DNA of 64,000 nucleotides from NCBI GenBank assembly GCA_963776915.1, contig CAVZPE010000004.1, positions 513,812 to 577,811 on the forward strand, written 5' to 3'. Made by a program: the position numbers and the translations under genes. Of this stretch, positions 21,733 to 55,353 are shown one piece after another (the stretch's first letter is position 1; each line of letters begins with the position of its first letter). This stretch comes from an uncultured Acidobacteriota bacterium (lineage in GTDB: Bacteria > Acidobacteriota > Thermoanaerobaculia > UBA5066). Under the pieces are notes generated by a model that saw nothing but the letters and a program-made list of their open reading frames with translations, had not been told where the DNA came from and did no database searches.

Positions 21733-21736
21733 GGCT

Positions 21737-35972: not shown

Positions 35973-35987
35973 CCTTGCGTGGGACGT

Positions 35988-37149: not shown

Positions 37150-37370
37150 AAGGGAGAAGAGAGGAAAGAGGAAGATTCTTCTGCTAAGAGCGGCCGCTTC
37201 TCGCGGCCGCTCCGGAACGAATCTGTGCGCGCGCCGGGCTGTCAAGGGCGCGCTTCGCGCGCCGCGTAGCGGCCGAAGGCCCTTGACAGCGCGCCGCGCG
37301 CCCATCTTTCCTCGGCGGCGGCTGCGCATGCAGCCGCCGATAGCAGAAGAAATCTTCTCTTCTTCTCTCT
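37106..37370. repeat. Mosaic palindromic repeat, copy D (long form), between convergent nagZ and ssb
   Basis: The outer arms are GAGAGAGAAGAGAAGAGACGAAGA and TCTTCTCTTCTTCTCTCTTC. The cores are GAAGATTTTCTTAGAAGGGA (37136), GGAAGATTCTTCTGCTAAGAGC (37170) and GCAGAAGAAATCTTCT (37343). The interior hairpins are GCGGCCGC-TTCTC-GCGGCCGC, CTGTCAAGGGC...GCCCTTGACAG and CGGCGGCTGC-GCAT-GCAGCCGCCG. Confidence 0.85.
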
Positions 37371-37796: not shown

Positions 37797-37835
37797 GGCT
37801 CCTCCGATGGGCCCGGATCCTACAATCCCCCCGGC

Positions 37836-39401
37836 TTGAGCGACACGCGGAACCTCGTCCGGTCGACCTGGGGCATCACCGCGTGGGCGGTGCTCTCCCG
37901 GCTGGCGGGCGTCCTGCGCGACGCGACGATCGCCCGGTTCCTCGGGGCCTCGGCGTCGTCGGACGCGTTCTACACGGCGTTCCGGATCCCGAACACCTTC
38001 CGCGCGATCGTGGGGGAGGGGGGCCTGCCGGGGGCCTTCGTGCCCATGGCCAAGAAGGTCGAGCGCGAGCGCCCCGGCGAGGAGGGCGCCTACGCGGGCC
38101 GGATGCTCCTCCTCCTCGGCTGCGTCCTCGTCGGGCTCGTGGCCGTCGGGATCCTCCTCGCCGAGCCGATCGTCGCCCTCTTCGCGAGCGGCTTCCGGTC
38201 GACACCCGGCAAGTTCGAGCTGACGGTCCTCCTGACGCGGTGGATGTTCCCGTACGTCCTCCTCGTCTCGGTGGCCTCGCTGTTCGAGGCCTACCTCAAC
38301 TCGAAGGGGTTCTTCCAGCTCTCCGCCGCGACTCCCATCGCGTGGAACCTCTCGATCGTGGCGGCCGCGTGGCTGCTCGCGCCCGCGGGCGTGCCGCCGC
38401 TCACGGCCCTCACGGCCGGGGTCCTCGTCGGGGGCACCATGCAGGCCGCGCTGCAGGGGCCCGCGGTCCGCCGGCTCGGCCTGCGGTTCGAGGGATCGCC
38501 GTTCCGGGACCCGGAGGTGCGGAGCACGGCGCTCCGGATCGCCCCGCGCCTCTACGGCGCCGGGGTCGGGCAGCTCTCGTTCCTCGTCTCGAGCCGCACG
38601 CTCGCGGCCCTCGGCGACGCGTTCGTGACCTACAACTTCTGCGCCTTCCGCCTCGTGGACTTCGTCCTCGGCGGTTTCGTCGTCTCCCTCACGCGCACCG
38701 TCCTTCCCTCCCTGTCCGAGCAGGCGCTCGGGAAGGACCGTTCGGCCTACAAGGCGACCGTGGCGTTCGCCCTGCGCCTCATCGGGTTCGTGACGATCCC
38801 GTCCATGGTGGGCCTCATGCTCCTCGCCGCGCCGATCGTCGACGTCGTCTTCCGGCGCGGGCGGTTCGCGGAGGGAGACGTCACGAAGACGGCGCTCGCG
38901 GTCGTGTTCTTCGCCCTCGGGCTCTACGCGGCGGCGGGCGTGAAGATCGTGACGCAGGCCTTCTACGCGCTCCACGACACGCGGACGCCGGTCGTCGTCG
39001 CGACGTTCGACCTCGCCGTGTTCTGGACGCTGTGCGTCTGGCTCGCGAAGCCCATGCAGCACGCGGGCGTCGCCCTCGCGACGTCGGCGGGGTTCTGGAT
39101 CAACTTCCTCCTCCTCCTCGCCCTCCTCTGGCGGCGGCTCGGGTCGCTGGGCGGGCGCGTCGTGATCGCGGCGCTCGCGCGCCTTCTCCTCGCGAGCCTC
39201 GGGATGGGGGGCGTCGTGTGGCTCTTCGCGCACCGGCTCGTGCCGTACGACTTCCGGTGGGTCTTCCTCGCGCGCGCGGGCTGGGTCGCGGGCGCGGCCG
39301 CGCTCGGCGCGGCGGCGTTCCTGGCGTTCGCGGCGCTGCTCCGCGCGCCGGAGGTCGGGGAGGCGCTCGGCGCCCTGGGGCGGAAGAGGGTGCCGTCTTG
39401 A
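37836..39401 (+). CDS. murJ: Lipid II flippase MurJ
   Basis: I chose the TTG at 37836, in frame with ORF 37632, giving MSDTRNLVRSTWGITAWAVLSRLAGVLRDATIARFLGAS..DAFYTAFRIPN. The protein is polytopic throughout. Confidence 0.85.
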   Translation: MSDTRNLVRSTWGITAWAVLSRLAGVLRDATIARFLGASASSDAFYTAFRIPNTFRAIVGEGGLPGAFVPMAKKVERERPGEEGAYAGRMLLLLGCVLVGLVAVGILLAEPIVALFASGFRSTPGKFELTVLLTRWMFPYVLLVSVASLFEAYLNSKGFFQLSAATPIAWNLSIVAAAWLLAPAGVPPLTALTAGVLVGGTMQAALQGPAVRRLGLRFEGSPFRDPEVRSTALRIAPRLYGAGVGQLSFLVSSRTLAALGDAFVTYNFCAFRLVDFVLGGFVVSLTRTVLPSLSEQALGKDRSAYKATVAFALRLIGFVTIPSMVGLMLLAAPIVDVVFRRGRFAEGDVTKTALAVVFFALGLYAAAGVKIVTQAFYALHDTRTPVVVATFDLAVFWTLCVWLAKPMQHAGVALATSAGFWINFLLLLALLWRRLGSLGGRVVIAALARLLLASLGMGGVVWLFAHRLVPYDFRWVFLARAGWVAGAAALGAAAFLAFAALLRAPEVGEALGALGRKRVPS

Positions 39402-39416
39402 CCGTCCCGCCGCCGC

Positions 39417-39435
39417 CTTATATGGTTGCCATATG
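39417..39435 (+). promoter_or_regulatory. Candidate vapBC operator / -10 region
   Basis: ATATGG-TTG-CCATAT is an inverted repeat that overlaps a TTATAT hexamer and the vapB ATG. RHH antitoxins commonly autoregulate at palindromes of this kind. Confidence 0.35.
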
Positions 39436-39666
39436 GCGACGCTCAAGACGACCGTCTACCTGGACAGCGACGACTACCGGAGGCTGAAGGCGATCGCGCG
39501 GGAGGCCGGCCGCGCTCCCGCGGAGATGGTCCGCGAGGCCGTGTCGGAGTACGCGAGGCGCCACGGACGCAGGCGCCTGCCGAAGAGCCTCGGGGCCGGA
39601 CGCGGTGCGACCGACGACGGCGGGACCCGCGCCGAGGAGCACCTCGCCGGATTCGGCCGTTCCTGA
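39433..39666 (+). CDS. vapB: Ribbon-helix-helix (CopG-family) antitoxin
   Basis: This is a 77-aa ORF. KTTVYLDSDDYRRLKAIAREAGRAPAEMVREAV is an RHH motif. It overlaps the PIN toxin gene by 1 nt (TGATG). Confidence 0.75.
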   Translation: MATLKTTVYLDSDDYRRLKAIAREAGRAPAEMVREAVSEYARRHGRRRLPKSLGAGRGATDDGGTRAEEHLAGFGRS

Positions 39667-40079
39667 TGATCGTCGCCGACACGGGGGCCGTGTACGCGCT
39701 CGTCGATTCGAGGGAACGCCATCACCGCGTCCTTCGAAGGCTCTTCGAGTCCGATCCGGACGCCTGGGTCCTGCCGTGGGCCATCCTTCCGGAGGTGGAC
39801 TACCTGGTGGGAAAACGCCTCGGACAGAAGGTCGAGGACGAGTTTCTCGAGGATCTCGCCGAGGGGCGCTTCGCGGTCGCGTGGGGGGACGAAGACGATC
39901 TTCGGGAAGCTCGCCGGATCTGCGCGCGCCACCGGGCGCTGAAGTTCGGGCTCGTCGACGCGACCGTCATGGCCGTCGCCGAGAGGCTGAAGGCGAACGC
40001 GATCGCCACCCTCGACGTGCGCGATTTCGGCGCCGTGGCCCTGAAGGGCTCGCCGAAGCTCTATCCCCGCGATCTCTGA
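39666..40079 (+). CDS. vapC: PIN-domain toxin VapC
   Basis: The protein starts at the internal ATG of ORF 39426 (MIVADTGAVYALVDSRERHH..EVDYL..GLVDATVMAVAERL). The conserved acidic residues are at typical PIN positions. Confidence 0.75.
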   Translation: MIVADTGAVYALVDSRERHHRVLRRLFESDPDAWVLPWAILPEVDYLVGKRLGQKVEDEFLEDLAEGRFAVAWGDEDDLREARRICARHRALKFGLVDATVMAVAERLKANAIATLDVRDFGAVALKGSPKLYPRDL

Positions 40080-40084
40080 CGCGG

Positions 40085-40120
40085 GAAACGAAAACGCCCG
40101 CCGGCGAGACCGGCGGGCGT
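40085..40120 (-). terminator. Rho-independent terminator (minus strand) between vapC and the secreted-protein gene
   Basis: The stem is ACGCCCGCCGG / CCGGCGGGCGT (11 bp) with loop CGAGA, followed on the minus strand by TTTTCGTTTCC. Confidence 0.7.
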
Positions 40121-40142
40121 CGGGGATCAGAGGGAACGGGGA

Positions 40143-41106
40143 TCAGTGCCCGTCGAGGCAGCCCTTCTGGCCGCTGCTGTTCGGGTAGCCGGTGCCGGCC
40201 GTGTAGGCCGCGTTCGACCACTCGCCCTGCAGCTTCCACGAGGTGCCGCCCGAGAACGAGACCGACGGGACGTTGAACGTCCAGGCGCACTTGTCGCCGT
40301 TCTCGGCGCCCGAGGAGTCGAACCAGCCCGTGCCGCGGGGATCGGTCATCGCCTCGGAGAGCTCGTGCGCGGAGACGTTCGCGAGGGCCGCGAGACCCTG
40401 CGAATGCGTCGTCGTCGTGTCCTGCGGGTCGCAACCGGCGTCGCCGTCGAGGTTGAAGAAGAACGCGAACTGGATCGGAACGCCGTTGCAGCTTCCCCAG
40501 CTGTGCCACGCGCAATATCCGGCGTGCCCGCGTTTGACGTCCGTGTAGACCGGGTAGTAGCCGTTCCGCCACGGGACTCGAGATCGTCTTGCAGACTTCT
40601 GCGAGGATCGGTGCGGTCCGGCTGCCCCCGGTCGCCGTCGAGAAGTCGAGATGGCGGCCGTTGAACTGGGACGCCGCGGTCACCTGGCCGTTGCTCCCGC
40701 TGTACTCGGTGGAGGTCTTCGCGTAGTTGCTCCCGCCGAAACCCTGGTAGAACGAGTCGAGGCCCGTGACCTTGTCACCCGCGAAAGTACCCACGTTCCA
40801 GCTCGGCCCCCAGAAGATGCTCTCGACGGCCGAGGAAACCATGATCGGGCCGTTGTGCCAGGTCATGTTCGGCGATCCGCCGCCTCCGGGCCTCCTGAGC
40901 GCCTGCCGCCCGGCGGCCTTCGCGTGCTCCTCGCGCGTCAGGAAGATGACCGTCGGCGCGTCGGTCGGCGCGCCCTCCACGTCCGATGCGGCCACGGTGG
41001 TGTCCGCGTCGCCACTCACGGCGCGCACGTCCTCCGCGAACGCGGGCGCGGCCGCGAGGGCGAACGCCGCCACGAGGGCCAGGACTGGAATCTGCCCCTT
41101 CTTCAT
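40143..41106 (-). pseudogene. Secreted hypothetical protein (~320 aa), one frame change near 40577
   Basis: The signal peptide is MKKGQIPVLALVAAFALAAAPAFA, preceded by an AGGAGGA RBS. After ...CKTISSP the protein continues in another frame: WRNGYYPVYTDVKRGHAGYCAWHSWG..SAHELSEAMTDPRGTGWFDSSGAENGDKCAW..CLDGH*. Confidence 0.55.
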
Positions 41107-41284
41107 GGAATCTCCTCCTGAACGGACCGGTATCTCGCCGTGAATTGGCTCGACGGACGGGCAGCGAGTACCCCGACCGAGGCCCCGGTTGCTTGCTGGA
41201 CCTGTACGCTAACAGAGAGCAAGACTCTCTCTCAACGGAAATCCCGATGACGCGGCGGAGCAAAGGCGGCGCGTCAGGAGCCCG

Positions 41285-42193
41285 TCAGATCAGCTCGAGC
41301 GGGATCGGGGCGAAGCAGACGACGAAGATGAGGAGCACCGCGGCGGCGACGAGCTTGCGGCGGAAGTCGAGCGGCGCGTCCTCGTCGAGGACGGGAGGGT
41401 GCCGGAGCCCCGTGAAGAGCGTGAACGCGACCCAGATCCACCAGCCCGGCCAGTGCAGGCCCATGAACGCGAGGACGATCAGGAGCGGGATCGCGATCGT
41501 CCGCTGCCAGCGGCCGAACACCGCGTAGATCGCGTGCCCGCCGTCGAGCTGCCCGAGCGGAAGGAGGTTCAGGGCGGTGACGAACAGGCCGAACCAGGCC
41601 GCGATGAAGACCGGGTGCTCGATCGCGTCGGCGCTCGTGAACGTCGTCCCGAGGACGAGCTTCTGGAAGAGCGTCACGAGGATCGGGTAGCGGAACAGGA
41701 TCGTGCCCTCCGACAGGACGGGGGAGGGGTTCGGGCGCGTGTGCGCGATTCCCCACGCGAGGAGCGGCAGCGCGACGACGAACCCGGCGATCGGGCCCGC
41801 GACGCCGACGTCGAAGAGCTGGGCCTTGTTGCGGATCGGCTCGCGGATCCGGATGAACGCGCCCATCGTGCCGACGAGCGACGGGAACGGGATGAAGTAC
41901 GGCGGCGACGCGTCGATGCCGTACCGGCGGCACATGAGGTAGTGCCCCATCTCGTGCGAGAGCAGGATCAGGAGGAGCGGAACCGAGAACGTGATCGCCC
42001 CGCGGAACAGGGCGCCGAGCGTCGCGGCCGTGTCGCCGCCCGGCGCGAGGAGGCTGGGCCGGAAGTTGACCGCGAAGTTCGCCCCGACGTACGTCGTCGT
42101 CCCGAAGGTGAGGACGAAGAGGAGGACGTGCAGCCACCACCGCTCGCGGCGCCGCGGCGCGGGTGCCGCCGCCCCGGACGGACCGACGGGCAC
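41285..42193 (-). CDS. Site-2 protease family (M50) membrane metalloprotease
   Basis: This is an intact 302-aa ORF. It carries the HEMGH motif, the NLLPLGQLDGGH motif and several TM segments. Confidence 0.85.
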   Translation of the reverse strand: MPVGPSGAAAPAPRRRERWWLHVLLFVLTFGTTTYVGANFAVNFRPSLLAPGGDTAATLGALFRGAITFSVPLLLILLSHEMGHYLMCRRYGIDASPPYFIPFPSLVGTMGAFIRIREPIRNKAQLFDVGVAGPIAGFVVALPLLAWGIAHTRPNPSPVLSEGTILFRYPILVTLFQKLVLGTTFTSADAIEHPVFIAAWFGLFVTALNLLPLGQLDGGHAIYAVFGRWQRTIAIPLLIVLAFMGLHWPGWWIWVAFTLFTGLRHPPVLDEDAPLDFRRKLVAAAVLLIFVVCFAPIPLELI

Positions 42194-42194
42194 T

Positions 42195-42530
42195 TCAGGA
42201 GCGGGCGGCGGGAGCGGGGGAGTCGTGGCTCGGCTCCTTCGATTCCGGTTCTGCGGGCCCGGTCATGTCGCGGAGCTCCTTGCCGGGCTTGAAGCGGATC
42301 GTGAAGCCGGGCGGGATCTGGACTTCCTCGGTCGGGCGCTTGGGGTTGCGGCCGATGCCGCGCTTGCGGGGCTTGACGAGGAACACGCCGAAGCCCCGGA
42401 GCTCGATGCGCTCGCCGCGCGTGAGGGCCTGGCGCATGACGTCGATGATCGTCTCGACGGCCAGCGTGGCCTTCTGCCGCGGCACGTCGGCCGCCTCGGC
42501 GACGCCGTTGATGATGTCGTTCTTGATCAC
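42195..42530 (-). CDS. HU/IHF-family DNA-binding protein (IHF-like)
   Basis: This is an intact 111-aa [47 protein letters not shown] is the HU/IHF beta-arm signature. Confidence 0.8.
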
Positions 42531-42589
42531 GTGTCCGCGGAGTCTACCCGGTCCCGCCCATCTCGTTCAAATCGAGCCCGTTAGCACCG

Positions 42590-43840
42590 TCAGAGGTGGT
42601 TCAGGCGGTTCTTGAGAAGGACGATTTCGAGCCCCGTCGCGGCCATCGAGGCCAGCCGCTTGAGGGCGGGCACCGACGGGGCCTTGGCGCCCTCGGCGGC
42701 CTCGCCGTAGAGGTACACGACCGTCTTCCCCTTGAGGTTGACCGGGACCACGGCCACGAGGCCGAGGCCGTCCGAGCCGAGGGCCTCGAGCGCCGCGGCC
42801 GTACCGGGCAGGTCGGGCTGCGGTCCGACGTAGAAGCCTTCGGTGTTGCGGAGCGTCGCGAAGACGGACGGCTCGGTGTCGGGCAGGCGGAAGCGGCCGA
42901 AGCTCTCGTGCGGCGCGGGCTTCGCGGCCCATCCGGAAACGTGGGCCGGCTGCGCGATGAAGAGCGCCGCACGCTTCACGTGCCGGAGCGCGTCGTCGAG
43001 GATCGCGTCGGCGACGTCGTCGCGATGGCGCGCGGCCGAGAGCCGCGACAGGAGGCGTTCCTCAGCCGCGGCCTCAGGGGTGGGCTCGGGGCGCTCCGGA
43101 AACTCCATGGACTCGGGCTGCGGGTCCAGGACCTCGAGCGGGTCCTCGAAGATCTCGGGCTCCGCCCGGCGGCGCAGCGCGGACGCCGCGAGGGTCGCCC
43201 CCTCGGCCTGCCACGGGTCGCCCTCGTCCATGCGCCGGAAGCGCTGCGGATAGGGCGAGAGGATCTCGGGCGGCGGAGGCGGCGCCGGCACGACCCGGAG
43301 GTCGGGCTTGCTCTTCGCGCGCCCGATCTTCGGCTGCGTCGGCTCGTCCGTGTCGTCCTTCTTCCGGGACCCCACCTCGCGCAGGTACGCGGCGGCCGAC
43401 AGGTAGCGCGGCTCGACGTCGGCCGCGTAGAAGCGGTAGAGGAGCGCGTAGATCCGGACCTCGAGGGCCGCGTGGGGCGCGATCCGGAAGCCGGTCAGCG
43501 CGGCGAGCTCGTCGAGGGCGGGGAGGTCCTTGGGGTCGCGCATCGCGACGGAAAGCACGCGCCCTTCCTTGCGAAACGGCACGGCGTGCAGGCGCTGGGC
43601 GACGCGCCCGGGGACGAGCCTCAGGACGTCCGAGCGGATCGACTCGAGGGACTCGGGAACGGCCGGAGGCACGCGGCTCTGCACGGCGAGGCCGTGCGCG
43701 ACGACGTCCTCCGAGGTCTCCTCCTCGAGGAGCGCCGTGCCGAAGCGCCCGCGCAGCCGGCCCTGCCGGAGGACGGCGCGCTGCCGCTGCTCTTCGGTGA
43801 TGAGCTTGCTCTCGACGAGGAGGTCCCCGAGACGCGGCAT
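42590..43840 (-). CDS. GspE/MshE N-terminal (T2SSE_N) domain protein
   Basis: A 416-aa protein starts at the internal ATG 43840 of ORF 42590-44353. [46 protein letters not shown] fits the T2SSE_N pattern. The C-terminal half is unassigned. Confidence 0.55.
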
Positions 43841-43894
43841 GCGAATGTTTCTCGACGAAAGTTTACACCGCCGAGGACGCGTAGAATCGCCGCC

Positions 43895-44308
43895 ATGAGC
43901 GAGCGTCCCATCCGCGTTCTCGTCGCGAAGCCCGGTCTCGACGGGCACGACCGCGGCGCCAAGGTCATCGCCCGGGCGTTGCGCGACGCGGGGATGGAAG
44001 TCATCTACTCGGGCCTGCGCCAGACGCCGCAGCAGATCGCCGCGGCCGCCGTCCAGGAGGACGTCGACGTCGTCGGGCTCTCGATCCTGTCCGGCGCGCA
44101 CAACGTCCTCGTGCCGGAGGTCCTCGCGGCGCTCGAGGAGCGCGGCGGCGAGGGCATCGCGGTCGTCGTGGGCGGGATCATCCCCGAGAAGGACATCGCG
44201 CCGCTCAAGTCGAAGGGCGTGCGGGAGGTCTTCCTGCCGGGGACGAGCACGTCGGCCACCGTCGACGCGATCCGCCGCCTCGTGGCGGAACGGGCCGCGG
44301 CGTCCTGA
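43895..44308 (+). CDS. Cobalamin (B12)-binding domain protein (acyl-CoA mutase small-subunit type)
   Basis: The protein starts at the internal ATG of ORF 42596 ([38 protein letters not shown]). It has the DxHxxG B12-binding motif and the GG..P motif. Confidence 0.8.
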
Positions 44309-44360
44309 TCGCCTCCGCGCGCCTCCCGGGCCGGGCGCGCCGGGCCCGTACAATCCGTCC

Positions 44361-45974
44361 GTGAGCGAGACCCTCGTCTCGAAGCTCTCGCCGTCGGACG
44401 GCGAGTTCCAGGAGAACGCCGCCCATCACCGGGCCCTGGCGGCGCGCCTGAAGGAAGAGCTCGCGAAGGCGCGCGAGGGCGGAGGCGAGAAGGAGCGGCA
44501 GAGGCACGTCTCGCGCGGCAAGCTCCCCGTGCGCGAGCGGATCGAGCGGCTCCTCGACCCCGACACGGCGTTCCTCGAGATCGCGCCGCTCGCGGGCCAC
44601 GGGCTGTACGACGGCGCCGCCCCGGGCGCGGGCCTCGTGACGGGCATCGGCAGGGTCGAGGGCCGCGCGGTGATGATCGTCGCGAACGACGCCACCGTGA
44701 AGGGCGGCACGTATTACCCCGTGACGGTCAAGAAGCACCTCCGCGCGCAGGAGATCGCCCTCGAGAACCGCCTTCCGGCGATCTACCTCGTGGACTCGGG
44801 CGGCGCGTTCCTCCCGCTGCAGGCCGAGGTCTTCCCGGACCGCGATCACTTCGGGCGCATCTTCTACAACCAGGCGCGCATGAGCGCCGCCGGCCTGCCG
44901 CAGATCGCGGCCGTGCTCGGCTCGTGCACCGCGGGGGGCGCGTACGTTCCGGCGATGTCGGACGAGACCGTCATCGTGAAGAACCAGGGGACGATCTTCC
45001 TCGCGGGGCCGCCGCTCGTGAAGGCCGCGACCGGAGAGGACGTGACCGCCGAGGAGCTCGGAGGCGGCGACGTCCACACGCGCCTGTCGGGCGTCGCGGA
45101 CCACCTCGCGGACGACGACGCGGACGCGCTCGAGAAGGTGCGCGGCATCGTCGCCCACCTCGCCGCGCCGCCCCCGCCGCCTCCCGCCCGCATCGCGCCC
45201 GAGGAGCCGCGCTACCCGGCGGAGGAGATCTACGGGGTCGTCCCCAAGGAGACGCGGCGGCCCTACGACGTGCGCGAGATCCTCGCGCGCGTCCTCGACG
45301 GGTCGCGGTTCCACGAGTTCAAGCCGCGTTACGGCGCCACGCTCGTGACGGGTTTCGGCCACGTCTCCGGCTATCCGGTCGCGATCCTCGCGAACAACGG
45401 CGTCCTCTTCTCGGAGTCCGCCCTCAAGGCGACGCACCTCGTCGAGATGGCCTGCCAGCGCGGCGTCCCGCTCGTCTTCCTCCAGAACATCACGGGCTTC
45501 ATGGTCGGCCGCGCGTACGAGCAGGGCGGGATCGCGAAGGACGGCGCGAAGATGGTCCATGCCGTCGCGAACGCCGCGGTGCCGAAGATCACGCTCCTCG
45601 TCGGAGGCTCCTTCGGCGCCGGGAACTACGGAATGTGCGGACGCGCCTACCAGCCGCGCTTCCTCTTCACGTGGCCGAACGCCCGCATCAGCGTCATGGG
45701 GGGCGAGCAGGCCGCCGACGTCCTCGCGACCGTCAAGGACGACCAGCGCGTCCGCGAAGGGGGTCCGCGGATGACCGACGCCGAGCGCGCCGCGTTCCGC
45801 CGGCCGACGCTCGAGAAGTACGAGGCCGAGGGGAACCCCTACTACGCGACCGCCCGGCTGTGGGACGACGGGATCGTCGACCCGGCAGAGACGCGGCGCG
45901 TCCTCGCGCTCGCCCTCGCGACCGCGTTCCGCGCGCCGGGCGGGGAGACGCGGTTCGGCGTCTTCCGGATGTAG
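44361..45974 (+). CDS. mccB: Methylcrotonyl-CoA carboxylase, carboxyltransferase (beta) subunit
   Basis: This is an intact 537-aa ORF of the carboxyl-transferase family ([45 protein letters not shown]). It lies in liu-type context with a hydratase, a biotin carboxylase and an HMG-CoA lyase. Confidence 0.85.
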
Positions 45975-45978
45975 ACCG

Positions 45979-46817
45979 ATGAAACGCGCTCTCCTCGCCT
46001 CCGCGCTCCTCCTCGCCGCCTCCCGCCTCCGCGCAGACGCGCGTGACGTGCGGCACGGTCGACGCGCTCGAGGTGACGTCCCTGACGCGGACGAGGGTCA
46101 CCGCCTTTCTCCGGACGAAACTTCCGGACGCGCCCGCCGGCGCGAAGAGTTTCTTCGAAGGGAAGATCGAGCTGGCGAACACGATCCTGCCGGTCGGGCA
46201 GCCGGTGACGTTGCTCGTGCAGCACGTTGCGGAGGGCCACGAGGCCGTCTTCCTCGTCGATCTCGAGCTGTCCCGGGTTCCCGCCGAGCTCGTCGCACGA
46301 CTCCATTCCGCCGCGCTCGATTTCACGCTCGAAGGAAATCTCCGGACCTCCGCCGGCGCGACGCCGCACCCCGTGTGCGCCGCCGGCGTCCTGCGCGTCG
46401 GGACGAACGACATCCGGGCGGTGGGCCCCGTCGGCCAGGACTTCGCGAGGTTCTCCGGCGTGCGCTTCGCGCGGAATCTCCCTCGCCGAGACGCAGGGCG
46501 AGGCGTCCGTGGTCATCTACAACCCGCTGTCCTTCGCGCTCGACGTCAAGGACCTCGTGTACGAGATCCGCGCCGGCGACCGCAGGGTGGCGTCCGGCGA
46601 GCGCCACGGGATCCGGATCTACCCCGGCCGCGAGACTTCCGTCGACCTCCCGGTCGTCGCGGGCAATGCCGACCTCGCCGCCGCCCTCGCGGGCGCCGCC
46701 CTTTCGGGCGGGCGCGTCGAGGGACGGCTCGTCGCGACGATCTCCGTGAAGGTCGGAAAGGACCAGGTCATGACCGTTCCGCTCAACCTCCCCGGGGCGA
46801 TCCAGGTGGTGCCGTGA
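45979..46817 (+). pseudogene. LEA_2 / WHy-like lipoprotein, two frame changes (about 46040 and about 46480)
   Basis: The pieces are MKRALLASALLLAAS.. (ORF 45979), TCGTVDALEVTSLTRTRVTAFLRTKL.. (ORF 46043) and ETQGEASVVIYNPLSFALDVKDLVYEIRAGDRRVASG..MTVPLNL (ORF 46227). The family call is by eye. Confidence 0.45.
46144..46343. repeat. Inverted core pair inside the LEA_2 gene
   Basis: GAAGAGTTTCTTCGAAGGGAAG lies at 46144 (coding KSFFEGK). GCTCGAAGGAAATCTCC lies at 46327 (coding LEGNL). Both are AT-rich patches in GC-rich coding sequence, in forward-then-reverse orientation. Confidence 0.5.
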
Positions 46818-47614
46818 GCGCCCCGAAGATCCTGCTCGAGAAGTCGCCCTCCGACCCGCGCGTCGCGCGCCTCGTCCTCAACCGGCCCGAGACCCGCAAC
46901 GCCTGGGACGGCGAGACCGTCTCGCTGCTGCAGCGCGCGCTCCGCGACCTCGCCTCGGACGAGTCCGTGCGCGTCGTCGAGCTCTCGGGCGAGGGGCCGG
47001 CCTTCTGCGCGGGCGCCGATCTCGACTGGATGAAGCGTGTCGCGAATTTCACGATGGAGGAGAACCGGCGCGACTCGGCGGAGCTCGCGCAGCTCTTCCG
47101 GGCGCTCGACGAGCTCGACAAGCCCGTCGTCGCGCGCGTGCAGGGCGCCGCGCTCGGCGGCGGGACCGGCCTCGTCGCCGCGTGCGACGTCGTCGTCGCG
47201 GCCGAGGGCGCGGTCTTCGGGACGACGGAGGTGCGCCTCGGGATCATCCCGGCCGTGATCTCGCCCTACGTGGTCCGCAAGATCGGCGCGTCGCACGCGC
47301 GCGCGTGGTTCCTGACGGGCGAGCGGGTCGGAGCCGAGGAGGCGCGCCGCGTCGGCCTCGTCCACCACGTCGTCCCGGAGCAGGATCTCGGCAAGGCCAC
47401 GAAGGCCGTGATCGACGCGATCCTCCTGGGCGGGCCCGCGGCCGTGGTCGAGGCCAAGCGCCTCGTCCACACGGTGTCGACCCTGCCCCTGCGCGAGGCG
47501 ACCGCCTGGGCCGTCCAGCGGATGGCGGAGCGGCGCGGCTCGCACGAGGGCCTCGAAGGCCTGAAGGCCTTTCTCGAGAAGCGGCCCGCGAGCTGGACGA
47601 CGAAGGGCTCGTGA
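46814..47614 (+). CDS. liuC: Enoyl-CoA hydratase (methylglutaconyl-CoA hydratase-like)
   Basis: The GTG at 46814 overlaps the upstream stop (GTGA). The crotonase motifs are FCAGADL and GAALGGGTGLVAACD. Confidence 0.8.
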   Translation: MSAPKILLEKSPSDPRVARLVLNRPETRNAWDGETVSLLQRALRDLASDESVRVVELSGEGPAFCAGADLDWMKRVANFTMEENRRDSAELAQLFRALDELDKPVVARVQGAALGGGTGLVAACDVVVAAEGAVFGTTEVRLGIIPAVISPYVVRKIGASHARAWFLTGERVGAEEARRVGLVHHVVPEQDLGKATKAVIDAILLGGPAAVVEAKRLVHTVSTLPLREATAWAVQRMAERRGSHEGLEGLKAFLEKRPASWTTKGS

Positions 47615-49600
47615 CGCGCGGGCGGCCCTTCCGGCGCGTCCTCGTCGCGAACCGCGGCGAGATCGCAGTGCGCGTCGTCCGCGGCTGCCGCGCGGCGGGC
47701 CTCGCGTCGGTGGCCGTGTACTCCGAGGCGGACCGGAACGCGCGCCACGCCGCGCTCGCCGACGACGCCGTCGAGATCGGCCCGGCGCCGGCCCGGGAGA
47801 GCTACCTCTCGATCCCGAGGCTCCTCGCGGCGGCGAAGAGCGACGGGCTGCGACGCCGTGCATCCCGGCTACGGCTTCCTGTCGGAGAACGCGGACTTCG
47901 CGCGCGCGGTCGAGGAGGCGGGGCTCGTCTGGATCGGCCCTCCGCCCGAGGCGATGGAAGCGATGGGGAGCGAAGATCGCATCGCGAGAGAACGGATGAG
48001 AGCGGCCGGCGTCCCCGTCGTGCCCGGCGCGCTCATCGCCGGGTTCGAAGAGGACGAAGAGAGAGAGAAGATTTCTTCGAATGGTAAAGAGGGCGGGGCG
48101 CGCGGTGGCGCCGCTCGGCGCGCGGCGGGGCAGCCCGCAACCTCTGGCACCTTCAAAGAAATCTCTTCTTCTTCTTCCTCTTCCTTCAAAGAAATTCTCT
48201 CTCTGGGTCTTCCCGTCGTCGTCAAGGCTTCGGCGGGAGGCGGCGGCAAGGGGATGAGGGTCGTCCGCTCGTCTGCGGAACTCTCCGAAGCCATTTCTTC
48301 CTGCCGCCGCGAGGCGGCGGCGGCGTTCGGGGACGCGACCGTTTACGTCGAGAAGTACCTCGAGAATCCGCGCCACGTGGAGGTCCAGGTCTTCGGCGAC
48401 TGGCACGGCAACGTCGTCGCGATCGGCGAGCGCGAGTGCTCGCTCCAGAGGCGTCACCAGAAGGTCGTCGAGGAGTGCCCGTCTCCGGCCGTGACGCCGG
48501 AGCTGCGCGCGCGCCTCCTGAAGGCCGCCGTCGACGCCGCGAAGGCGGTCGGCTACGTGAACGCCGGGACGGTGGAGTTCCTCCTCGCGCCCTCGGGCGA
48601 GTTCCATTTCCTCGAGATGAACACGCGCCTGCAGGTCGAGCACCCGGTCACCGAGGAGGCTTTCGGCGTGGACCTCGTCCTCCTCCAGCTCGCCGTCGCG
48701 GCGGGGGAGAAGCTGCCGCCTCTCCCGTCCGTCCCGATCCGCCATGCGATCGAGGCGCGGGTCTACGCGGAGGATCCCGAGGCGGGGTTCCTGCCTCAGG
48801 CGGGGCGCGTCCTCCTCTATCGCGAGCCCTCGGGACCCGGCGTGCGGGTGGAGTCCGGCCTGGCCGAGGGCCAGGACGTCGGCGTCCACTACGACCCGCT
48901 GCTCGCGAAGGTCGTCGCCTCCGGCGCGACGCGCGACGAGGCCCGGCGGCGCCTCGTCGGCGCTCTCGGGGAGACGGTGATCCTCGGCGTCTCGACGAAC
49001 GTCTCGTGGCTGCGCCGGCTCCTCGAGACGCCCGAGGTCGCAGCGGGGGCGATCCACACGGGCCTCCTCGAGACTCTCCCCGTGCCCGCGCCTCCGGCGC
49101 CGCCCGACGAGGCGTTCGCGGCGGCCGCGGCGGCGCTCGTCCGGAGCGGCGCCCTCCGGTCCCGGCGGTCCCGTCCTCGCCGACCCATTCGACGGCCGGT
49201 TCCGGACCGGAGGCGGCGCGTGAGGCTCCGCGAGGCGGCGACGGGGGCGTCGCGCGAGGTCCGTCCCGGCGGGATGCCGCGCGGAGCCTTCGCCGCGCGG
49301 GACGGCGAGGTCGCGTGGGTCTTCCTCGGCGGCGAGACGTGGCGCATCTCGAAGGCGCCGGCCCGGGCCGCCCGCGCGGCGGAGGAGGAGCACGCCCTCA
49401 CCGCTCCGATGCCGGGCAGGGTCTCGGCCGTGCGCGTGTCCGACGGGCAGGCCGTGGAGAAGGGCGAGGTCCTCGTCGTGCTCGAGGCCATGAAGATGGA
49501 GCACGCCGTGAGGGCCCCGCGAGCCGGAATCGTCGCGCGACTCGCCGCCGAGCCCGGGAAGATGGTGGGGCTCGGGGACGTTCTCCTCGACGTCACATGA
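47611..49600 (+). pseudogene. mccA: Methylcrotonyl-CoA carboxylase alpha subunit (biotin carboxylase + BCCP), about 3 frame changes plus an in-frame repeat insertion
   Basis: The GTG at 47611 forms a GTGA overlap. It carries FRRVLVANRGEIAVRV (ORF 47182), HPGYGFLSEN..KASAGGGGKGMRVV..EMNTRLQVEHPVTE and the biotinyl site EAMKME (ORF 47858). The frame changes lie near 47850, 49145 and 49215. Confidence 0.85.
48044..48203. repeat. Palindromic repeat, copy E, in-frame inside mccA
   Basis: The left arm is GAAGAGGACGAAGAGAGAGAGAAGATTTCTTCGAATGGT. A GC-rich loop follows. The right arm is CACCTTCAAAGAAATCTCTTCTTCTTCTTCCTCTTCC, and CCTTCAAAGAAAT is duplicated. The translation is EEDEEREKISSNGKEGGARGGAARRAAGQPATSGTFKEISSSSSSSFKEILS. 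Confidence 0.85.
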
Positions 49601-50516
49601 GCGCGGGCTTCGTCACCGTCGTCGAGGTGGGACCGCGGGACGGTCTCCAGAACGAGGCCGCGGTCGTCCCGGCGGACGTGAAGGTCGCGTTCGTGGACGC
49701 GCTCTCGGCCTCGGGCCTCTCCGTGATCGAGGCGACGGCGTTCGTCTCGCCCCGGTCGATCCCGCAGCTCGCGGACGGCGAGGACGTCTTCCGGCGCATC
49801 GCGAAGCGGCCCGGCGTCCGCTATCCGGTCCTCGTCCCGAACGAGAAGGGTCTCGACCGCGCCGAGGCCGCGGGCGTGCGCGAGATCGCGGTCTTCACGG
49901 CGGCCTCCGAGACGTTCAACCGCCGGAACGTGAACGCCTCGATCGAGGAGTCCTTCGCCCGCTTCGCGCCGGTCCTCGCCCGGGCGGCGGCGGGGGGGAT
50001 GCGCGTGCGCGGTTACGTCTCGTGCGCGTTCGGCTGCCCGTACGAGGGTCCGGTCTCCCCGGAAGCCGTCGCGCGCGTGGCGGCGCGCCTGTTCCGGATC
50101 GGCTGCGCCGAGGTCTCCGTCGGCGACACGATCGGGATCGGCGTCCCGACGCAGGTTCCGGACGTCGTCGGGCGGACCGTGGAGGCGGGCGTTCCCCGTC
50201 GACCGCCTCGCGCTCCACTTCCACGACACGCGGGGGACCGCTCTCGCGAACGTCGTCGAGGGCCTGCGCGAGGGCGTCCGGATCTTCGACTCGTCCGCGG
50301 GCGGGCTGGGCGGGTGCCCGTACGCGCCCGGCGCGGCGGGAAACGTCGCGACCGAGGACCTGCTGTGGCTCCTCCAGCGGATGGGGTACGAGACCGGCGT
50401 CGACCTCGAGGCCGTCGCGGAGGCGTCGCGGGCCCTCGCCCGCGTCGACCGGGAGGCGTCCCGTCTCGCGCGTGTTCCAGGCCCTCGAAGCGGCAACGGC
50501 CCGGCGCCCGGTGTAA
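49597..50516 (+). pseudogene. hmgL: Hydroxymethylglutaryl-CoA lyase, two frame changes (about 50205 and about 50445)
   Basis: The ATG overlaps the mccA stop (ATGA). The sequence runs VVEVGPRDGLQNE.. (inside ORF 48436), then LALHFHDTRGTALANV..GGLGGCPYAPGAAGNVATEDL (frame of ORF 50381). The tail VSRVFQALEAATARRPV* is in ORF 50022. Confidence 0.85.
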
Positions 50517-50530
50517 ACTCCTCGCCAACC

Positions 50531-51655
50531 ATGCCCTCGCGCATCCTTCTGGCGGACGACAGTCTGACCATCCGCAAGGTGGTGGAGCTGACCTTCTCGG
50601 GCAGCGAGTTCGAGCTCAAGGCGGTCGGCAACGGCGACGAAGCCGTCGCCCTCCTCGCCGACTTCGAGCCGGACATCGTCCTCGCGGACGCCGTGATGCC
50701 CGGCCGGACCGGATACGAAGTCTGCGAAGAGGTGAAGCGCCGCCCGGGCGGGCGCTTCGTGCCCGTCGTCCTCCTGACCGGCACGTTCGAGCCGTTCGAC
50801 AAGCCGCGCTCGGAGCGCGTCGGCGCGGACTCCGTCGTCACGAAGCCGTTCGATTCGCAGGGCCTCGCGGCCCTCGTCCGGGATCTCGTCCGCCGCGCGG
50901 GCGAGGCGCGGGCGTCCGCTCCCCCGGAGCCGCCCCCCGCTCCCGAGCCGCCGCCTCCTCCTCCTCCGCCCGACGCGGAGGTGGGGGAGAACACGGACCC
51001 GACGTTCTCGGGCGCCGAGCCGTTCTACACGGCGCCCCTGGCGGTGCAGGCACCGCCTCCCACACCGGCGCCGGTCGAGGACATCTTCTCGACGACCGCG
51101 ATCCCCGTCTTCTCCGGGATCGAGGCGACTCCTCCTCCTGCTCCCCGCGCGAGCGGCGAGTTCGAGCCTCCGACCGAGCCGATCTCTCCGGTTCCGCCGC
51201 CGCCCCCGCCGCTCGCGGGCGAGCGCGGGTACGAGATGAACCTCGAGGGCCTCGACGACACGCCCGAGCCCCAGCGCCGCGATCTCGACGAGGACATCGC
51301 CGCCTTCGAGCAGTCCGACCGGGGCCAGACGCGCCGGCCCGAAGCGTGGGAGACCCTCGCCGCGCCCGCGGAGAGCACGCCGTCGCCGGAGACGGCCCAC
51401 TCGGAGCTGGAGGCGCTCGCGGCCGAGGCGAGCCTCACGGACCTCAAGAGCCTGATCCCCGACTCGGCGCCGATGGCGTCTCCGGCCGGATCCTCCGCCG
51501 GGCCGCTCTCGGACGCGGACATCGACCGCATCGCGCGCCGCGTGCTCGAGCTCGGCGGAGAGCGCGTCGTGCGCCGCATCGCCTGGGACGTCGTCCCGGA
51601 GCTGGCCGAGCGCCTCGTCAGGGAGCGCCTCGAGGAGCTCGAGAAGGCCGACTGA
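50531..51655 (+). CDS. Response-regulator receiver protein with a Pro-rich linker and a conserved C-terminal domain
   Basis: The protein starts at the internal ATG of ORF 50381. ILLADDSLTIRKVV..DIVLADAVMPGRTGYEV..VTKPF is a CheY-like receiver. No DNA-binding domain is evident. Confidence 0.7.
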   Translation: MPSRILLADDSLTIRKVVELTFSGSEFELKAVGNGDEAVALLADFEPDIVLADAVMPGRTGYEVCEEVKRRPGGRFVPVVLLTGTFEPFDKPRSERVGADSVVTKPFDSQGLAALVRDLVRRAGEARASAPPEPPPAPEPPPPPPPPDAEVGENTDPTFSGAEPFYTAPLAVQAPPPTPAPVEDIFSTTAIPVFSGIEATPPPAPRASGEFEPPTEPISPVPPPPPPLAGERGYEMNLEGLDDTPEPQRRDLDEDIAAFEQSDRGQTRRPEAWETLAAPAESTPSPETAHSELEALAAEASLTDLKSLIPDSAPMASPAGSSAGPLSDADIDRIARRVLELGGERVVRRIAWDVVPELAERLVRERLEELEKAD

Positions 51656-51663
51656 CACGGGAG

Positions 51664-51682
51664 GCGCGGCCGCAGGCCGCGC
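51664..51682 (+). terminator. Hairpin after the response-regulator gene
   Basis: The stem is GCGCGGCC-GCA-GGCCGCGC (8 bp). It is followed by a T-containing tract that runs into the heptamer repeat. Confidence 0.45.
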
Positions 51683-51689
51683 TCCGGGG

Positions 51690-51862
51690 CTTTCGGATTT
51701 CGGATTTCGGATTTCTTAGAAGGGTGAGTGGGGCTGCGGCTCGACCGCCGGCGCGGCGGTCACTCGGCCGCCTCGATCCCTCTTCACCTTCTAAGCAATC
51801 CTCGGGTCCTCGCTTTCCCTCTTCCTCCCCTCATTCGAAGAAATTCTCCTTTCCGATATCCT
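51690..51862. repeat. Repeat copy F upstream of valS, preceded by a 7-nt tandem repeat (ATTTCGG x3-4)
   Basis: The tandem tract is CTTTCGG ATTTCGG ATTTCGG ATTTCTT. The forward core is TTAGAAGGGTGAGTGGGG, followed by a hairpin loop (GACCGCC-GGCGC-GGCGGTC). The reverse core is CCCTCTTCACCTTCTAAG, followed by a polypyrimidine run and CTCATTCGAAGAAATTCTC. Confidence 0.8.
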
Positions 51863-51871
51863 CGGCAGCCT

Positions 51872-54532
51872 GTGAAGGAGCTCGAGAAGACCTTCGACCC
51901 GTCCACCTTCGAGATGCGCTGGTACAAGGCGCAGGAGGAGGCCGGTGTCTTCCGTCCCGAGTCCGCCGGCCGGGACGCCGAGCCGTTCACGATCGTGATC
52001 CCGCCGCCGAACGTCACGGGGCGGCTGCACGTCGGTCACGCGCTCGGGCGGACGCTCGAGGACGTCCTGTGCCGCTGGCGCCGCATGCAGGGGCGCGCCG
52101 TCCTCTGGGTCCCCGGCGTCGACCACGCCGGCATCGCGACGCAGATGGTCGTCGAGCGCGACCTGAGGGAACGGACGGGCCAGTCGCGCCACGACCTCGG
52201 CCGCGACGCGTTCGTCGCGCTCTGCCGCGAGTGGGCGGACGCGCGCCGCGGAGACATCCTCGACCAGATCCGGCGGCTCGGCTGCTCGTGCGACTTCACC
52301 CGCGAGTACTACACGCTCGACGCGATCCGCTCGCGCGCCGTCCGCTTCGCGTTCACGACGCTCTACGAGCAGGGCCTCGCCTATCGCGCCGAGCGGCTCG
52401 TGAACTGGTGCCCGAGCTGCGCGACCGTCCTCTCCGACCTCGAGGTGAACCACGTCGAGACGTCCGGGCACCTGTGGTCGATCGCGTACCCCGTGGTGGG
52501 CGGCGGGGAGGTCGTCGTCGCGACGACGCGGCCCGAGACGATGCTCGGCGACACCGCGGTCGCCGTGCACCCCGACGACGAGCGCTACGCCGGCGCTCGT
52601 CGGCAAGCGCGTGACGCTTCCGCTGACGGGCCGGACCATCCCGGTGATCGCCGATTCCTTCGTGGAGAGGGAGTTCGGGACGGGGATCGTCAAGGTGACG
52701 CCCGCGCACGATCCGAACGACTTCGAGGCGGGCAGGCGCCACGGGCTCGACCTCGTGACCGTCATCGGGTTCGACGGCCGGATGACGCCGGCCGCCGGCG
52801 CCGCGTACGCGGGCCTCGAACGCGCCGAGGCGCGCAAGAAGGTCCTGCGGGACCTCGAGGCGCAGGGCCTGCGCCGGGGCGAGAAGAGCCACCTCGTGCC
52901 GCTCGCGCGCTGCCAGAGGTGCGACACGATCGTCGAGCCGCTCGTCTCGATCCAGTGGTTCGTGAAGATCGGCCCTCTCGCCGCCAAGGCGGTCGAGGCG
53001 ACGGAGAGGCGGGAGACGACCTTCACGCCCGAGCTCTGGAAGAAGACCTACGACGAGTGGATGCGGAACATCCGCGACTGGTGCATCTCGCGCCAGCTCT
53101 GGTGGGGACACGAGATCCCGGCCTGGTACTGCCCGGACGGCCACGTGAACGTCCCGAAGCCGGGCGCGGACGACCCCACGGCGTGCGCGACGTGCGGCTC
53201 GGCCGCCCTCGTGCGCGACCCGGACGTGTTCGACACGTGGTTCTCGTCGTGGCTCATGCCGCTCTCCGTGTTCGGCTGGCCCGCGAAGACGGCGGACTTC
53301 GAGCGCTTCTATCCGACGAGCGTTCTCGTGACGGGCTTCGACATCCTCTTCTTCTGGGTGGCCCGGATGATCATGGCCGGCACCTGGTTCGACGGGCGGG
53401 CGCCCTTCCGGGACGTGGTCCTGCACGGCCTCGTGCGCGACGAGAAGGGCCAGAAGATGTCGAAGACGAAGGGCAACGTCGTCGACCCGCTCGAGATGTG
53501 CGACGAGTTCGGGGCGGACGCCGTGCGGTTCACGCTCGCCGTCCTGTCCGGCACGGGCCGCGACCTCCCGTTCGGCAAGTCGCGCGTCGCGGGTTACCGC
53601 GGCTTCGCGACGAAGGTCTGGAACGCCGCGCGCTTCGCGCTGCCCCTGATCTCGGAAGGAGCGTGCGTGGACGCGCTCGAGTTCCGTTCCCTCTCCACGG
53701 TCGACCGCTGGATCCTCGCGCGGTTCTCGGACGCCGCGAGCCGCGTGGGCGCGTCCCTCGAGGCCTGCCGCTTCGACGAGGCGGCGCACGCGCTCTACCA
53801 GTTCTTCTGGTCCGAGTTCTGCGACGGCTACGTCGAGATGATCAAGCCGGTCCTCCGCGGCGCCGACGTGCCGGAGGCCGAGAAGGCGCGGACGCGCGGC
53901 GTCCTCAAGCGGGTGCTCCTCGACTCGCTCGCGCTCCTGCATCCGTTCATGCCGTTCGTGTCCTGCGAGATCCGCGAGGCGCTGAACGGGGACGGCCTCG
54001 GCCTCGCGACGGCGAAGTTCCCCGAGCCGGACCCCGACTGGAAGGACGACGCGGCGGTGAGGTGGTCGAGACTCCTGCGGGCGATCGTGACGCGAGTCCG
54101 GAACCTGCGCGCCGAGCACGGCCTCGCGCAGACCGAGGCGCTCGCGGTCGGCCTCGAGCTCCCGCAGGACCCCTTTCAGAGGGAAATGCGGCGTCACGTC
54201 CCGCTCCTGAGCCATCTCGCGCGGCTCAGCGCCGTGGAGATTTCTTCGAGGTGGAATTGGCCCGGAGCGCATCGCGACGTCGTCGCGGAGATCGGGATCG
54301 TCGTCGAATTGCCTTCGAAGAGAGATTTCTTCCGAAGACAGGGAGAAGCTGCGAGCGCGACGTGGAGCGCCTGCGCGCCGAGGCGGCGAAGATCAGAGCG
54401 CGGCTGGCCGACCAGAGCTTCCTCGCGCGCGCTCCCGCACCCGTTGTCGCGAAGACGAAGCAGCAGCTCGAAGAAATCTCCGAACGGATCGCGCGGCTCT
54501 CCGGCAACCTCGTGGGGACTCCGGACCGGTGA
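51872..54532 (+). pseudogene. valS: Valyl-tRNA synthetase, two or more frame changes (about 52590 and about 54340)
   Basis: The GTG at 51872 gives MKELEKTFDPSTFEMRWY. The sequence carries PPPNVTGRLHVGHAL (HIGH motif), TRPETMLGDTAVAVHPDD, then ORF 52611 (GTGIVKVTPAHDPNDF..KMSKTKGN, the KMSKS motif). The coiled-coil tail returns to the first frame. Confidence 0.9.
54237..54340. repeat. Inverted core pair G inside the valS C-terminal region (a further core lies at 54466-54480)
   Basis: GAGATTTCTTCGAGGTGGAATTGG lies at 54237. GAATTGCCTTCGAAGAGAGATTTCTTCCGAAGA lies at 54305. They flank native-looking codons (PGAHRDVVAEIGIVV). The second valS frame change lies at the right core. Confidence 0.6.
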
Positions 54533-55353
54533 GCGGCGGCGGCGCTCCCGTCCCGCCCGCGGCGTCCCCTCTCGGGTCGCTCGCTCCCCTCGGCGGGAGG
54601 CGCTTCGTGCGTCTCCACAATCTCATCTTCGTCCGGACGACGCCGTCCACGAACGATCTCGGGAAGATCATCGTCGAGCGCATGCTCGCCGAGAGCGAGG
54701 AGATCCGCCTCACGGTGATCGTCGCGGGCGAGCAGACCGCCGGGCGCGGGCGCGCGGGCCGGCCGTGGACGTTCGTGCCCGGCGCGCTCGCCCTCTCCGC
54801 CATCGTGCCCTGGCCGGAAGGCCCCGGGCGCGTCCGGCTCCCGATCGAGACCGGCATCCTCCTGGCGCGCGGCCTCGCGGCCGCGTTCGGGATCGAGGTC
54901 AGGGTGAAGTGGCCGAACGACCTCCTCGTCGGGCGGAAGAAGATCGGCGGCCTCCTCGTCGAGGCGCGGTCGAACGACGAGGGCGAGGGCTGGGCCGTGG
55001 TCGGCTTCGGACTGAACGTCCGCGGAACGCGAGCCGACCTCGACGCGCGCGGCCTGACGGACGCGACGTCGCTCGAGGCGTGCGGCGTCGCGCCCACGCT
55101 GCTCGAGGGCGAGGAGCCGCTCGACGCCGTGCTCACGATCCTCGACGAGGGGATCGGCGAGCCCTGCACCGACCCGCTCCCCGAGGCGTTCGCGGCCGTC
55201 TCGGCCCACGCGCCCGGCGACAGCCTCACGGTGGACGACGGCACCCGGACCCGCAAAGGGGCGTTCGCGGGCGTCTCGCCCGAGGGCTTCCTGCGCCTCG
55301 CGACCGAGAGCGGCGACGAGACGCTCGTGTCGGGGGACGTCGTCCTCTTCTGA
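54529..55353 (+). CDS. birA: Biotin--[acetyl-CoA-carboxylase] ligase (no HTH domain)
   Basis: This is an intact 274-aa ORF whose GTG start overlaps the valS stop. It carries the motifs GEQTAGRGRAGRPW and KWPNDLLVGRKKIGGLLVE. Confidence 0.85.
   Translation: MSGGGAPVPPAASPLGSLAPLGGRRFVRLHNLIFVRTTPSTNDLGKIIVERMLAESEEIRLTVIVAGEQTAGRGRAGRPWTFVPGALALSAIVPWPEGPGRVRLPIETGILLARGLAAAFGIEVRVKWPNDLLVGRKKIGGLLVEARSNDEGEGWAVVGFGLNVRGTRADLDARGLTDATSLEACGVAPTLLEGEEPLDAVLTILDEGIGEPCTDPLPEAFAAVSAHAPGDSLTVDDGTRTRKGAFAGVSPEGFLRLATESGDETLVSGDVVLF

Follow-up and report, generated by a model that had tools for sequence, protein, structure and literature searches.

We analysed a 64,000-nt stretch of DNA from an uncultured Acidobacteriota bacterium (GenBank assembly GCA_963776915.1, contig CAVZPE010000004.1; G000:C4:513812-577811 in our genome and contig handles), hereafter the window, and focused on positions 54237-54486 near the 3' end of valS, the gene for valyl-tRNA synthetase (ValS), where a short word termed the core recurs. 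Comparison with related genomes indicates that this interval is, with high probability, a conserved 3' part of valS that was overprinted by a genus-wide word through base substitution, and that the frame changes in the gene are most likely insertions introduced in assembly; no evidence of flipping of the DNA between the cores was found. The source assembly comprises 4.49 Mb in 34 contigs at 71% G+C, with 81.6% completeness and 4.5% contamination, and its nearest relatives are metagenome-assembled genomes (MAGs) of Thermoanaerobaculia (Acidobacteriota). The sites concerned are as follows, in window coordinates.

51872-54532, forward strand: valS, identified by translations, Pfam and tblastn with the intact ValS of genomes G001 and G009.
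54167-54188, forward strand: island 0, a reverse-core-like word, GGACCCCTTTCAGAGGGAAATG, coding GPLS(K/E)EM (orthologue alignment).
54236-54253, forward strand: core 1, GGAGATTTCTTCGAGGTG, coding VEISS and forming the left arm of an 18-nt inverted repeat (motif and repeat search).
54254-54311, forward strand: native ValS segment (..NWPGAHRDVVAEIGIVVEL) leading from the anticodon-binding domain to the tRNA-binding arm (orthologues).
54322-54337, forward strand: core 2, GAGATTTCTTCCGAAG, coding EISSE in frame C.
54353-54529, forward strand: Val_tRNA-synt_C, the coiled-coil tRNA-binding arm (Pfam PF10458, E=1e-10).
54464-54481, reverse strand: core 3, CAGCTCGAAGAAATCTCC, coding QLEEIS and forming the right arm of the inverted repeat.

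The valS product matched the Pfam domains tRNA-synt_1, Anticodon_1 and Val_tRNA-synt_C, and the positions of these domains place cores 1 and 2 between the anticodon-binding domain and the tRNA-binding arm and core 3 inside the arm. We aligned the region with 25 intact valS 3' ends from the same genus, and the 264 nt spanning cores 1-3 aligned gap-free in all of them. ValS of sister genera was of equal length and 66-72% identical in the neighbouring part, with ordinary GC-rich codons at the cores, and the proteins of the genus and the sister genera showed no gaps across cores 1, 2 and 3; i.e., no sign of an insertion was found. At core 1, the sister genera encode ..SLVVAPKVDL.. (GTCGCCCCGAAGGTSGAC, with GTCGCCCCGAAGGTGGAC at the site itself), whereas the genus encodes ..AVEISSKVDI.. 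(GAGATTTCTTCGAAGGTGGAC). Similarly, LPKKELSAEEEA in the sister genera stands against LPKKEISSEDRE in the genus at core 2, and QLEELAARR (CAGCTCGAGGAGCTG) against QLEEISER (CAACTCGAAGAAATC) at core 3. The equal length and the GC-rich codons of the sister genera indicate that substitution at the base of the genus gave rise to the words.

The words are written in codons that the genome otherwise hardly uses, namely ATT (2.7% of Ile codons), TCT (1.9% of Ser), CTT (3.0% of Leu), GAA (9.0% of Glu) and CAA (1.6% of Gln). ATT at core 1 was present in 19/25 orthologues (76%) and TCT in 23/25 (92%), CTT and GAA at island 0 were each present in 24/25 (96%), and CAA, GAA and GAA at core 3 were each present in 17/25 (68%). 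The proportion of A/T at third codon positions was 0.475 in the four islands, which were chosen by eye from these data, compared with 0.141 elsewhere in the alignment, and block permutation gave 0/20,000. Retention of rare codons across the genus therefore suggests that the nucleotide sequence itself has been kept, either by selection or by biased conversion or uptake. Core 1 was recognisable in 25/25 orthologues and core 3 had decayed in roughly one third to one half of them, while the native segment at 54254-54311 was kept in all genus orthologues and was still recognisable in the sister genera. As judged from these alignments, the cores in valS are authentic, ancient, overprinted members of a genus-wide family of repeat words.

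Several claims of a sequence-only reading of the window, made before any genome was compared, are borne out by these results. It had translated the core at 54237 as VEISSRWNW, which is correct in the frame that it used, and had taken the bracketed stretch PGAHRDVVAEIGIVV for native ValS sequence, which is conserved in all same-genus orthologues. It had also proposed that the cores occur singly and are genuine members of a dispersed family, and that a third core lies in the coiled-coil tail near 54466, where an exact reverse-strand copy of GAGATTTCTTCGA was located at 54468-54480. Its description of 54305-54337 as a reverse core followed by a forward core, coding ELPSKRDFFRR, was right only in part. 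The forward core is present (54322, two mismatches) and the letters are correct in that frame; however, the supposed reverse core (54311-54320) is an 8-nt palindrome, CTTCGAAG, sharing 7 nt with the reverse core, and the peptide is altered by an extra base at about 54321. Besides the window, only genome G005 has this palindrome; the other orthologues have CCGAAGAAAGAG. In the alignment with ValS orthologues that the same reading had proposed, AT-rich rare codons were kept across the genus, no orthologue was inverted and the sister genera had GC-rich codons and other residues.

We then examined the core as a family. GAGATTTCTTCGA occurred exactly at 54237-54249 (forward) and, as the reverse complement, at the position in core 3 given above, with a two-mismatch copy at 54322-54334; core 2 is the core with one additional C between TTC and GAA. 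The window contained 13 matches of GAGATTTCTTCGA at up to two mismatches against 1.6 expected, a number reached in 0/100 shuffles. Across the 4.49 Mb of the genome, AGATTTCTTCGAA was found in 62 exact copies and in 308 copies with at most one mismatch, or about 1 per 15 kb. At the latter threshold, 25 same-genus genomes held 73-308 copies each, compared with 2-12 in 16 genomes belonging to other genera of the same order, and a reversed-pattern control gave 0-2 copies. The two orientations were nearly equal (149 and 159). The extended consensus consists of a purine-rich flank of about 25 nt, AGATTTCTTCGAA and then gGtGaAgaGG, and a 22-mer form of the word is GAGATTTCTTCGAAGGTGAAGA. Neighbouring copies at most 300 nt apart followed a marked order: the arrangement '+ then -' accounted for 43/84 neighbour pairs, whereas '- then +' was seen in 1/79 and the same-orientation arrangements in 5 each. 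Among the 43 is the core 1/core 3 pair of valS, with starts 229 nt apart.

Solo cores within genes showed no clear strand bias (17 sense and 26 antisense), although this is a rough count from a model based on G+C at third codon positions (GC3), which sorts cores into coding and intergenic unreliably, calls AT-rich units non-coding and was used only for this sense/antisense comparison. Complete hairpin units of the core family, with purine-rich terminal arms and a variable GC-rich centre, lie in frame inside genes, for example at 48044-48203 of the window. No recurrent core-to-core spacing was found between 300 and 6000 nt, which would have been a sign of an autonomous element with core termini. 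The Y1_Tnp/RAYT family (PF01797) had 0 matches in the own genome and was absent in 22/25 genus genomes. In most genomes of other genera of the order, where the core word is lacking, a Y1_Tnp (IS200/RAYT-type) transposase is present, often in multiple copies. A restriction-site effect of the hexamer TTCGAA was considered as the source of the core and dropped, the hexamer itself being at expectation genome-wide (833 observed, 825 expected).

Three further observations concern the family or related words. Outside the window, at C4:362349-430022 of the same genome, a cluster of Ser/Thr kinase paralogues was found, each with a forward core (LPEDFFEGEE) and a reverse core (IYSFEEIP) exactly 97 nt apart; the pair encloses native RFEREAKLLASLNHPGIAAIY, and a pyrimidine-rich low-complexity tract follows the reverse core. 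The metagenome contig Ga0302319_10002538 (L145) carries the 23-nt word GTGGAGATTTCTTCGAGTGTGAA in an unrelated, amidohydrolase-looking gene (..LKGVEISSSVNGASLGDD..); therefore, the word and its GVEISS reading recur outside valS. Finally, AAGCTT (the HindIII site) occurred 105 times in the genome against 421 expected under a Markov model, whereas GAATTC and TTCGAA were at expectation, and this scarcity suggests avoidance of a restriction site.

Because cores 1 and 3 are inverted, the question arises whether a helix or a flippable segment, rather than the word as such, has been kept. The best inverted pair of the region joins 54236-54253 with 54464-54481 (18 nt, 94% complementary, 210 nt apart), and core 2 and core 3 share an 11-nt perfect complement. 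A stem of core 1 or core 2 with core 3, in mRNA or single-stranded DNA, might thus be the functional unit, e.g., a processing or stability signal before birA. The minimum-free-energy fold of 54225-54495 does pair core 1 with core 3, and in-register pairing in the 25-sequence alignment was 80.8%, compared with 27-56% when the partner was slid. However, 80.8% of cells is the level of shuffled partners (mean 81.4%), the covariation score was 0.072 against 0.071 for shuffles, and no covariation above shuffles was found for core 2/core 3 among the 25 orthologues. The fold itself was not significant (z = -1.07; 28/200 shuffles folded as well), a search of Rfam over 51500-55000 returned only one insignificant chance match, and core 3 is eroded in many orthologues in which core 1 remains recognisable. 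The two sites are complementary because each is a copy of one and the same word, and we consider a functional stem very doubtful. The alternative that the segment is an intragenic inverton, in which a recombinase would flip the DNA between inverted cores and recode part of ValS, was the architecture put forward by the sequence-only reading. It could concern 54250-54311 or the interior of cores 1 and 3, which is exactly 216 nt (72 codons) in intact orthologues. Intragenic invertons, including recoding ones, have been reported by Chanin et al. (10.1101/2023.03.11.532203). As in that class, the inverted repeat lies wholly within valS around the segment, the interior is a multiple of three that could be recoded without stops (the flipped form was open in 5/5 genomes tested), and the core family follows the strong '+ then -' pairing. 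However, the flipped 216-nt form is stop-free because its third codon positions coincide with those of the sense frame, which are about 95% G/C genome-wide, and antisense open reading frames of about 640 codons overlap the core region; the openness of the flipped frame, a matter of composition, was therefore dropped as evidence. The small pair at 54250-54311 has arms of 7-8 nt, is found in two lineages only and, in the intact G005, encloses 65 nt, a length not divisible by three, and gives an in-frame stop when flipped. The forward orientation was seen in 25/25 genus orthologues. Of the 14 metagenome contigs matched, 13 carry valS, and these are forward too. The inverted junction of the core 1/core 3 pair (GTGGAGATTTCTTCGAG joined to CTGCTGCTTCG) had 0 matches in the metagenome and genome collections, whereas the native junction matched 14 metagenome contigs. 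The resolvase/invertase profile PF00239 had 0 matches in the own genome (82% complete; tyrosine recombinases were not searched). Moreover, a flip would wreck the tRNA-binding arm of an essential enzyme, and if the roughly 300 identical sites spread over the genome recombined, the chromosome would be scrambled, yet the compared genes keep the order of G001. In contrast to a known inverton, the arms belong to this family of about 300 copies and are not a dedicated pair. In these sequences, we saw no evidence of flipping between cores 1 and 3, and an inverton appears most unlikely.

The frame changes were assessed separately. valS in the window runs in frame A to about 52590, in B to 54320, in C over 54322-54351 and again in A from 54353 to the TGA stop, and the intact ValS of G001 and G009 aligned to it by tblastn in three frames. 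Relative to the orthologues, three single bases are extra, at about 52591, 54321 (AAG-A-GAG-ATT) and 54352 (CTG-C-GAG-CGC), as listed here.

52589-52593, forward strand: extra base, first frame change (TACGCCGGCG against TACGC-GGGC in relatives; alignment with six orthologues).
54312-54321, forward strand: CCTTCGAAGA, i.e., the palindrome CTTCGAAG with one additional base (at about 54321); frame B passes to frame C here, the second frame change.
54350-54355, forward strand: extra base, third frame change, C to A (CTG-C-GAG-CGC against CTG GNN CGC in relatives).

Between about 54321 and 54352, the third frame reads EISSEDREKL, the genus consensus; therefore, ELPSKRDFFRR is a misreading of ELPSK-EISSEDREKL. 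A single frame change at about 54340, coincident with the right core, had been proposed from the sequence alone. Instead, there are two insertions near that position, the one at about 52591 lies in plain GC-rich sequence far from any core, and frame switches turned out to be genome-wide and unenriched near cores. The GC3-based frame model, which calls coding-to-coding switches with no stop at the junction, yielded 1,227 of them, at 0.05-0.56 per kb across the 34 contigs, and 1,023 (83%) were +1. At least 10 further shifts in other window genes were confirmed by tblastn with intact G001 proteins, and no common motif was found at 13 confirmed shift sites. Nine switches lay within 100 nt of cores against about 30 expected, a shortfall that probably arises because the model calls AT-rich units non-coding. 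Several relatives are Microflora Danica MAGs, and G006, in 6 contigs, has an estimated completeness of 53% and a valS tail out of frame. Microflora Danica assemblies are Nanopore-only with one round of Medaka polishing (PMC12313526). Given the roughly 1,227 mostly +1 switches, the lack of a motif or a link to cores and the Nanopore-only relatives, the three frame changes in valS most likely stem from insertion errors that were left uncorrected in a long-read metagenome assembly; a completeness of 81.6% despite only 34 contigs was also counted in favour of an artefact.

A biological origin, i.e., ribosomal frameshifting programmed at the cores or close to them, or a valS decaying as a pseudogene, was weighed against these errors. 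The three shifts sum to +3, leaving the N- and C-terminal parts in one frame, and a second valS exists on contig C33 (C33:29246-30372, L021), which is 72% identical to the C4 copy over a 310-residue query and has core 1 and core 2. Moreover, the purine tract ahead of core 2 carries an indel in each of the two copies. However, the C33 copy is broken as well, by a 1-nt deletion in that tract, and valS is duplicated in none of the other genomes of the genus, so that two related organisms may be mixed in the bin (contamination 4.5%). The 25/25 orthologues are uninterrupted at the shifted sites, no slippery or shared motif was found at the 13 confirmed sites, and one of the valS shifts lies in plain GC-rich DNA. 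The switches affect all contigs, with many in housekeeping genes, and each correct frame is free of stops with 70-90% identity to relatives. A biological frame change is thus hardly credible, and we read the shared purine-tract indel, the sole remaining coincidence, as low-complexity sequence prone to error. An assembly with about 1,200 single-base insertions, most likely errors, means that any 'frameshift' in it should be distrusted.

Some local features were recorded alongside. Frame errors in the window are patchy: at about 14-29 kb (14273-24760), nearly every gene is in two or three frames relative to G001, whereas genes at about 33-51 kb (33330-51652) are mostly intact. At 54246-54260, within and just after core 1, the window has TCGAGGTGGAATTGG (SRWNW) where the nearest relatives have TCGAATGTGAATTGG (SNVNW); this difference could be a deletion and an insertion compensating each other, i.e., two further assembly errors and not true substitutions. 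The stop codon of valS and the start codon of birA overlap (GTGA) in the window (54510-54532) and in most relatives. In G001 (G001:C18, L003/L054), one additional G near the end of valS abolishes the TGA, and valS and birA are fused in an open frame of 1310 codons.

The overprinted cores were then compared with known repeat systems, two of which supply alternative explanations of why the word is there. The closest likeness is to the uptake sequences of Pasteurellaceae (uptake signal sequence, USS) and Neisseriaceae (DNA uptake sequence, DUS), which are likewise short lineage-specific words found in both orientations, overprinted on coding sequence, at orthologous positions and in inverted pairs (PMC2817400). 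In H. influenzae and N. meningitidis, 1,471 and 1,892 copies occur, about 1 per kb, and these sequences build up within coding regions through substitutions at residues of low conservation, which changes the peptide content (PMC2817400). A drive of this kind, in which preferential uptake or conversion spreads the word into tolerant coding positions without benefit to the host, would agree with a genus-specific word in 73-308 copies over-represented in equal orientations, with the lack of a clear sense/antisense bias (17 and 26), and with substitution at poorly conserved residues that alters the peptide. However, at about 1 per 15 kb the word is sparser than USS and DUS (about 1 per kb) by a factor of at least 10, it is longer (13-22 nt), and neither the purine-rich flanks nor the '+ then -' rule (43 against 1) is predicted by a simple uptake word. 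Biased uptake is putative in this uncultured genus known only from MAGs. We therefore regard a pure uptake drive as rather improbable. The second alternative sees the cores as remnants of a mobile palindromic element, similar to Rickettsia palindromic elements (RPEs), miniature inverted-repeat transposable elements or repetitive extragenic palindromic (REP) sequences, which inserted in frame into valS and then decayed. RPEs, reviewed in PMC10969869, are dispersed palindromic repeats that are tolerated in protein-coding genes and translated. The complete hairpin units of the core family, in frame in other window genes such as at 48044-48203, resemble them in this respect and have purine-rich terminal arms around a variable GC-rich centre, and the '+ then -' order is typical of element ends. 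However, RPEs lengthen the host protein by insertion, whereas the valS cores replace native codons with the length unchanged and without gaps at cores 1, 2 and 3 between the genus and the sister genera. An RPE-type in-frame insertion is therefore excluded for valS, and RPE-type behaviour belongs to the core family at other loci. Rare synonymous codons retained over 25 species are not expected of relics either, and the spacing of an autonomous element was not recurrent. With REP, BIME and REPIN sequences, the cores share short dispersed words, mostly in inverted pairs with hairpin potential. REPs are extragenic, whereas the four valS cores lie within essential coding sequence, and the cognate RAYT is absent from the own genome and 22/25 genus genomes. 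Decayed mobile elements in valS thus seem quite implausible.

Overprinting by substitution remains the explanation that we prefer. At the root of this Thermoanaerobaculia genus, base substitutions wrote four copies or near-copies of the genus word (A/G)GATTTCTTCGAA(GGTG) onto the linker and the tRNA-binding arm of valS, while gene length stayed constant. The residues replaced are VVAP by EISS, ELSAEE by EISSED and EELAAR by EEISER. The words have since been held in almost unused codons, with the nucleotide sequence presumably kept by selection or by biased conversion or uptake. Our best guess is that each word may be read by a genus-specific factor, acting on DNA or RNA, as sequence and not as a helix. 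Several points weigh against this explanation. The recogniser of the word is a hypothetical factor, and selection on the DNA word is not separable here from an uptake-sequence-like drive. The four islands of the permutation test were picked after inspection of the data, the evidence on orientation comes from consensus assemblies, which may hide a minority orientation, and that the source assembly is long-read is something we infer. In addition, the indel in the same purine tract of both valS copies may signal a context-specific cause.

valS shows with unusual clarity how a dispersed repeat word came into a gene through substitution rather than insertion, as the gene is essential and of single function and has 25 gap-free orthologues. 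The word altered amino acids and then persisted in codons with a usage below 3%, which is evidence of a constraint on the sequence itself, in addition to that of the protein code, in this uncultured acidobacterial genus. It is conceivable, although we hold it to be somewhat unlikely, that AGATTTCTTCGAA(GGTG) is a genus-wide recognition signal or drive that rewrote even essential proteins and has stayed fixed at silent sites from the origin of the genus onwards, a new kind of 'second code' joining overprinting of the uptake-sequence type to a strict grammar of inverted pairs. The 18-22-nt word offers a defined probe for seeking its reader.

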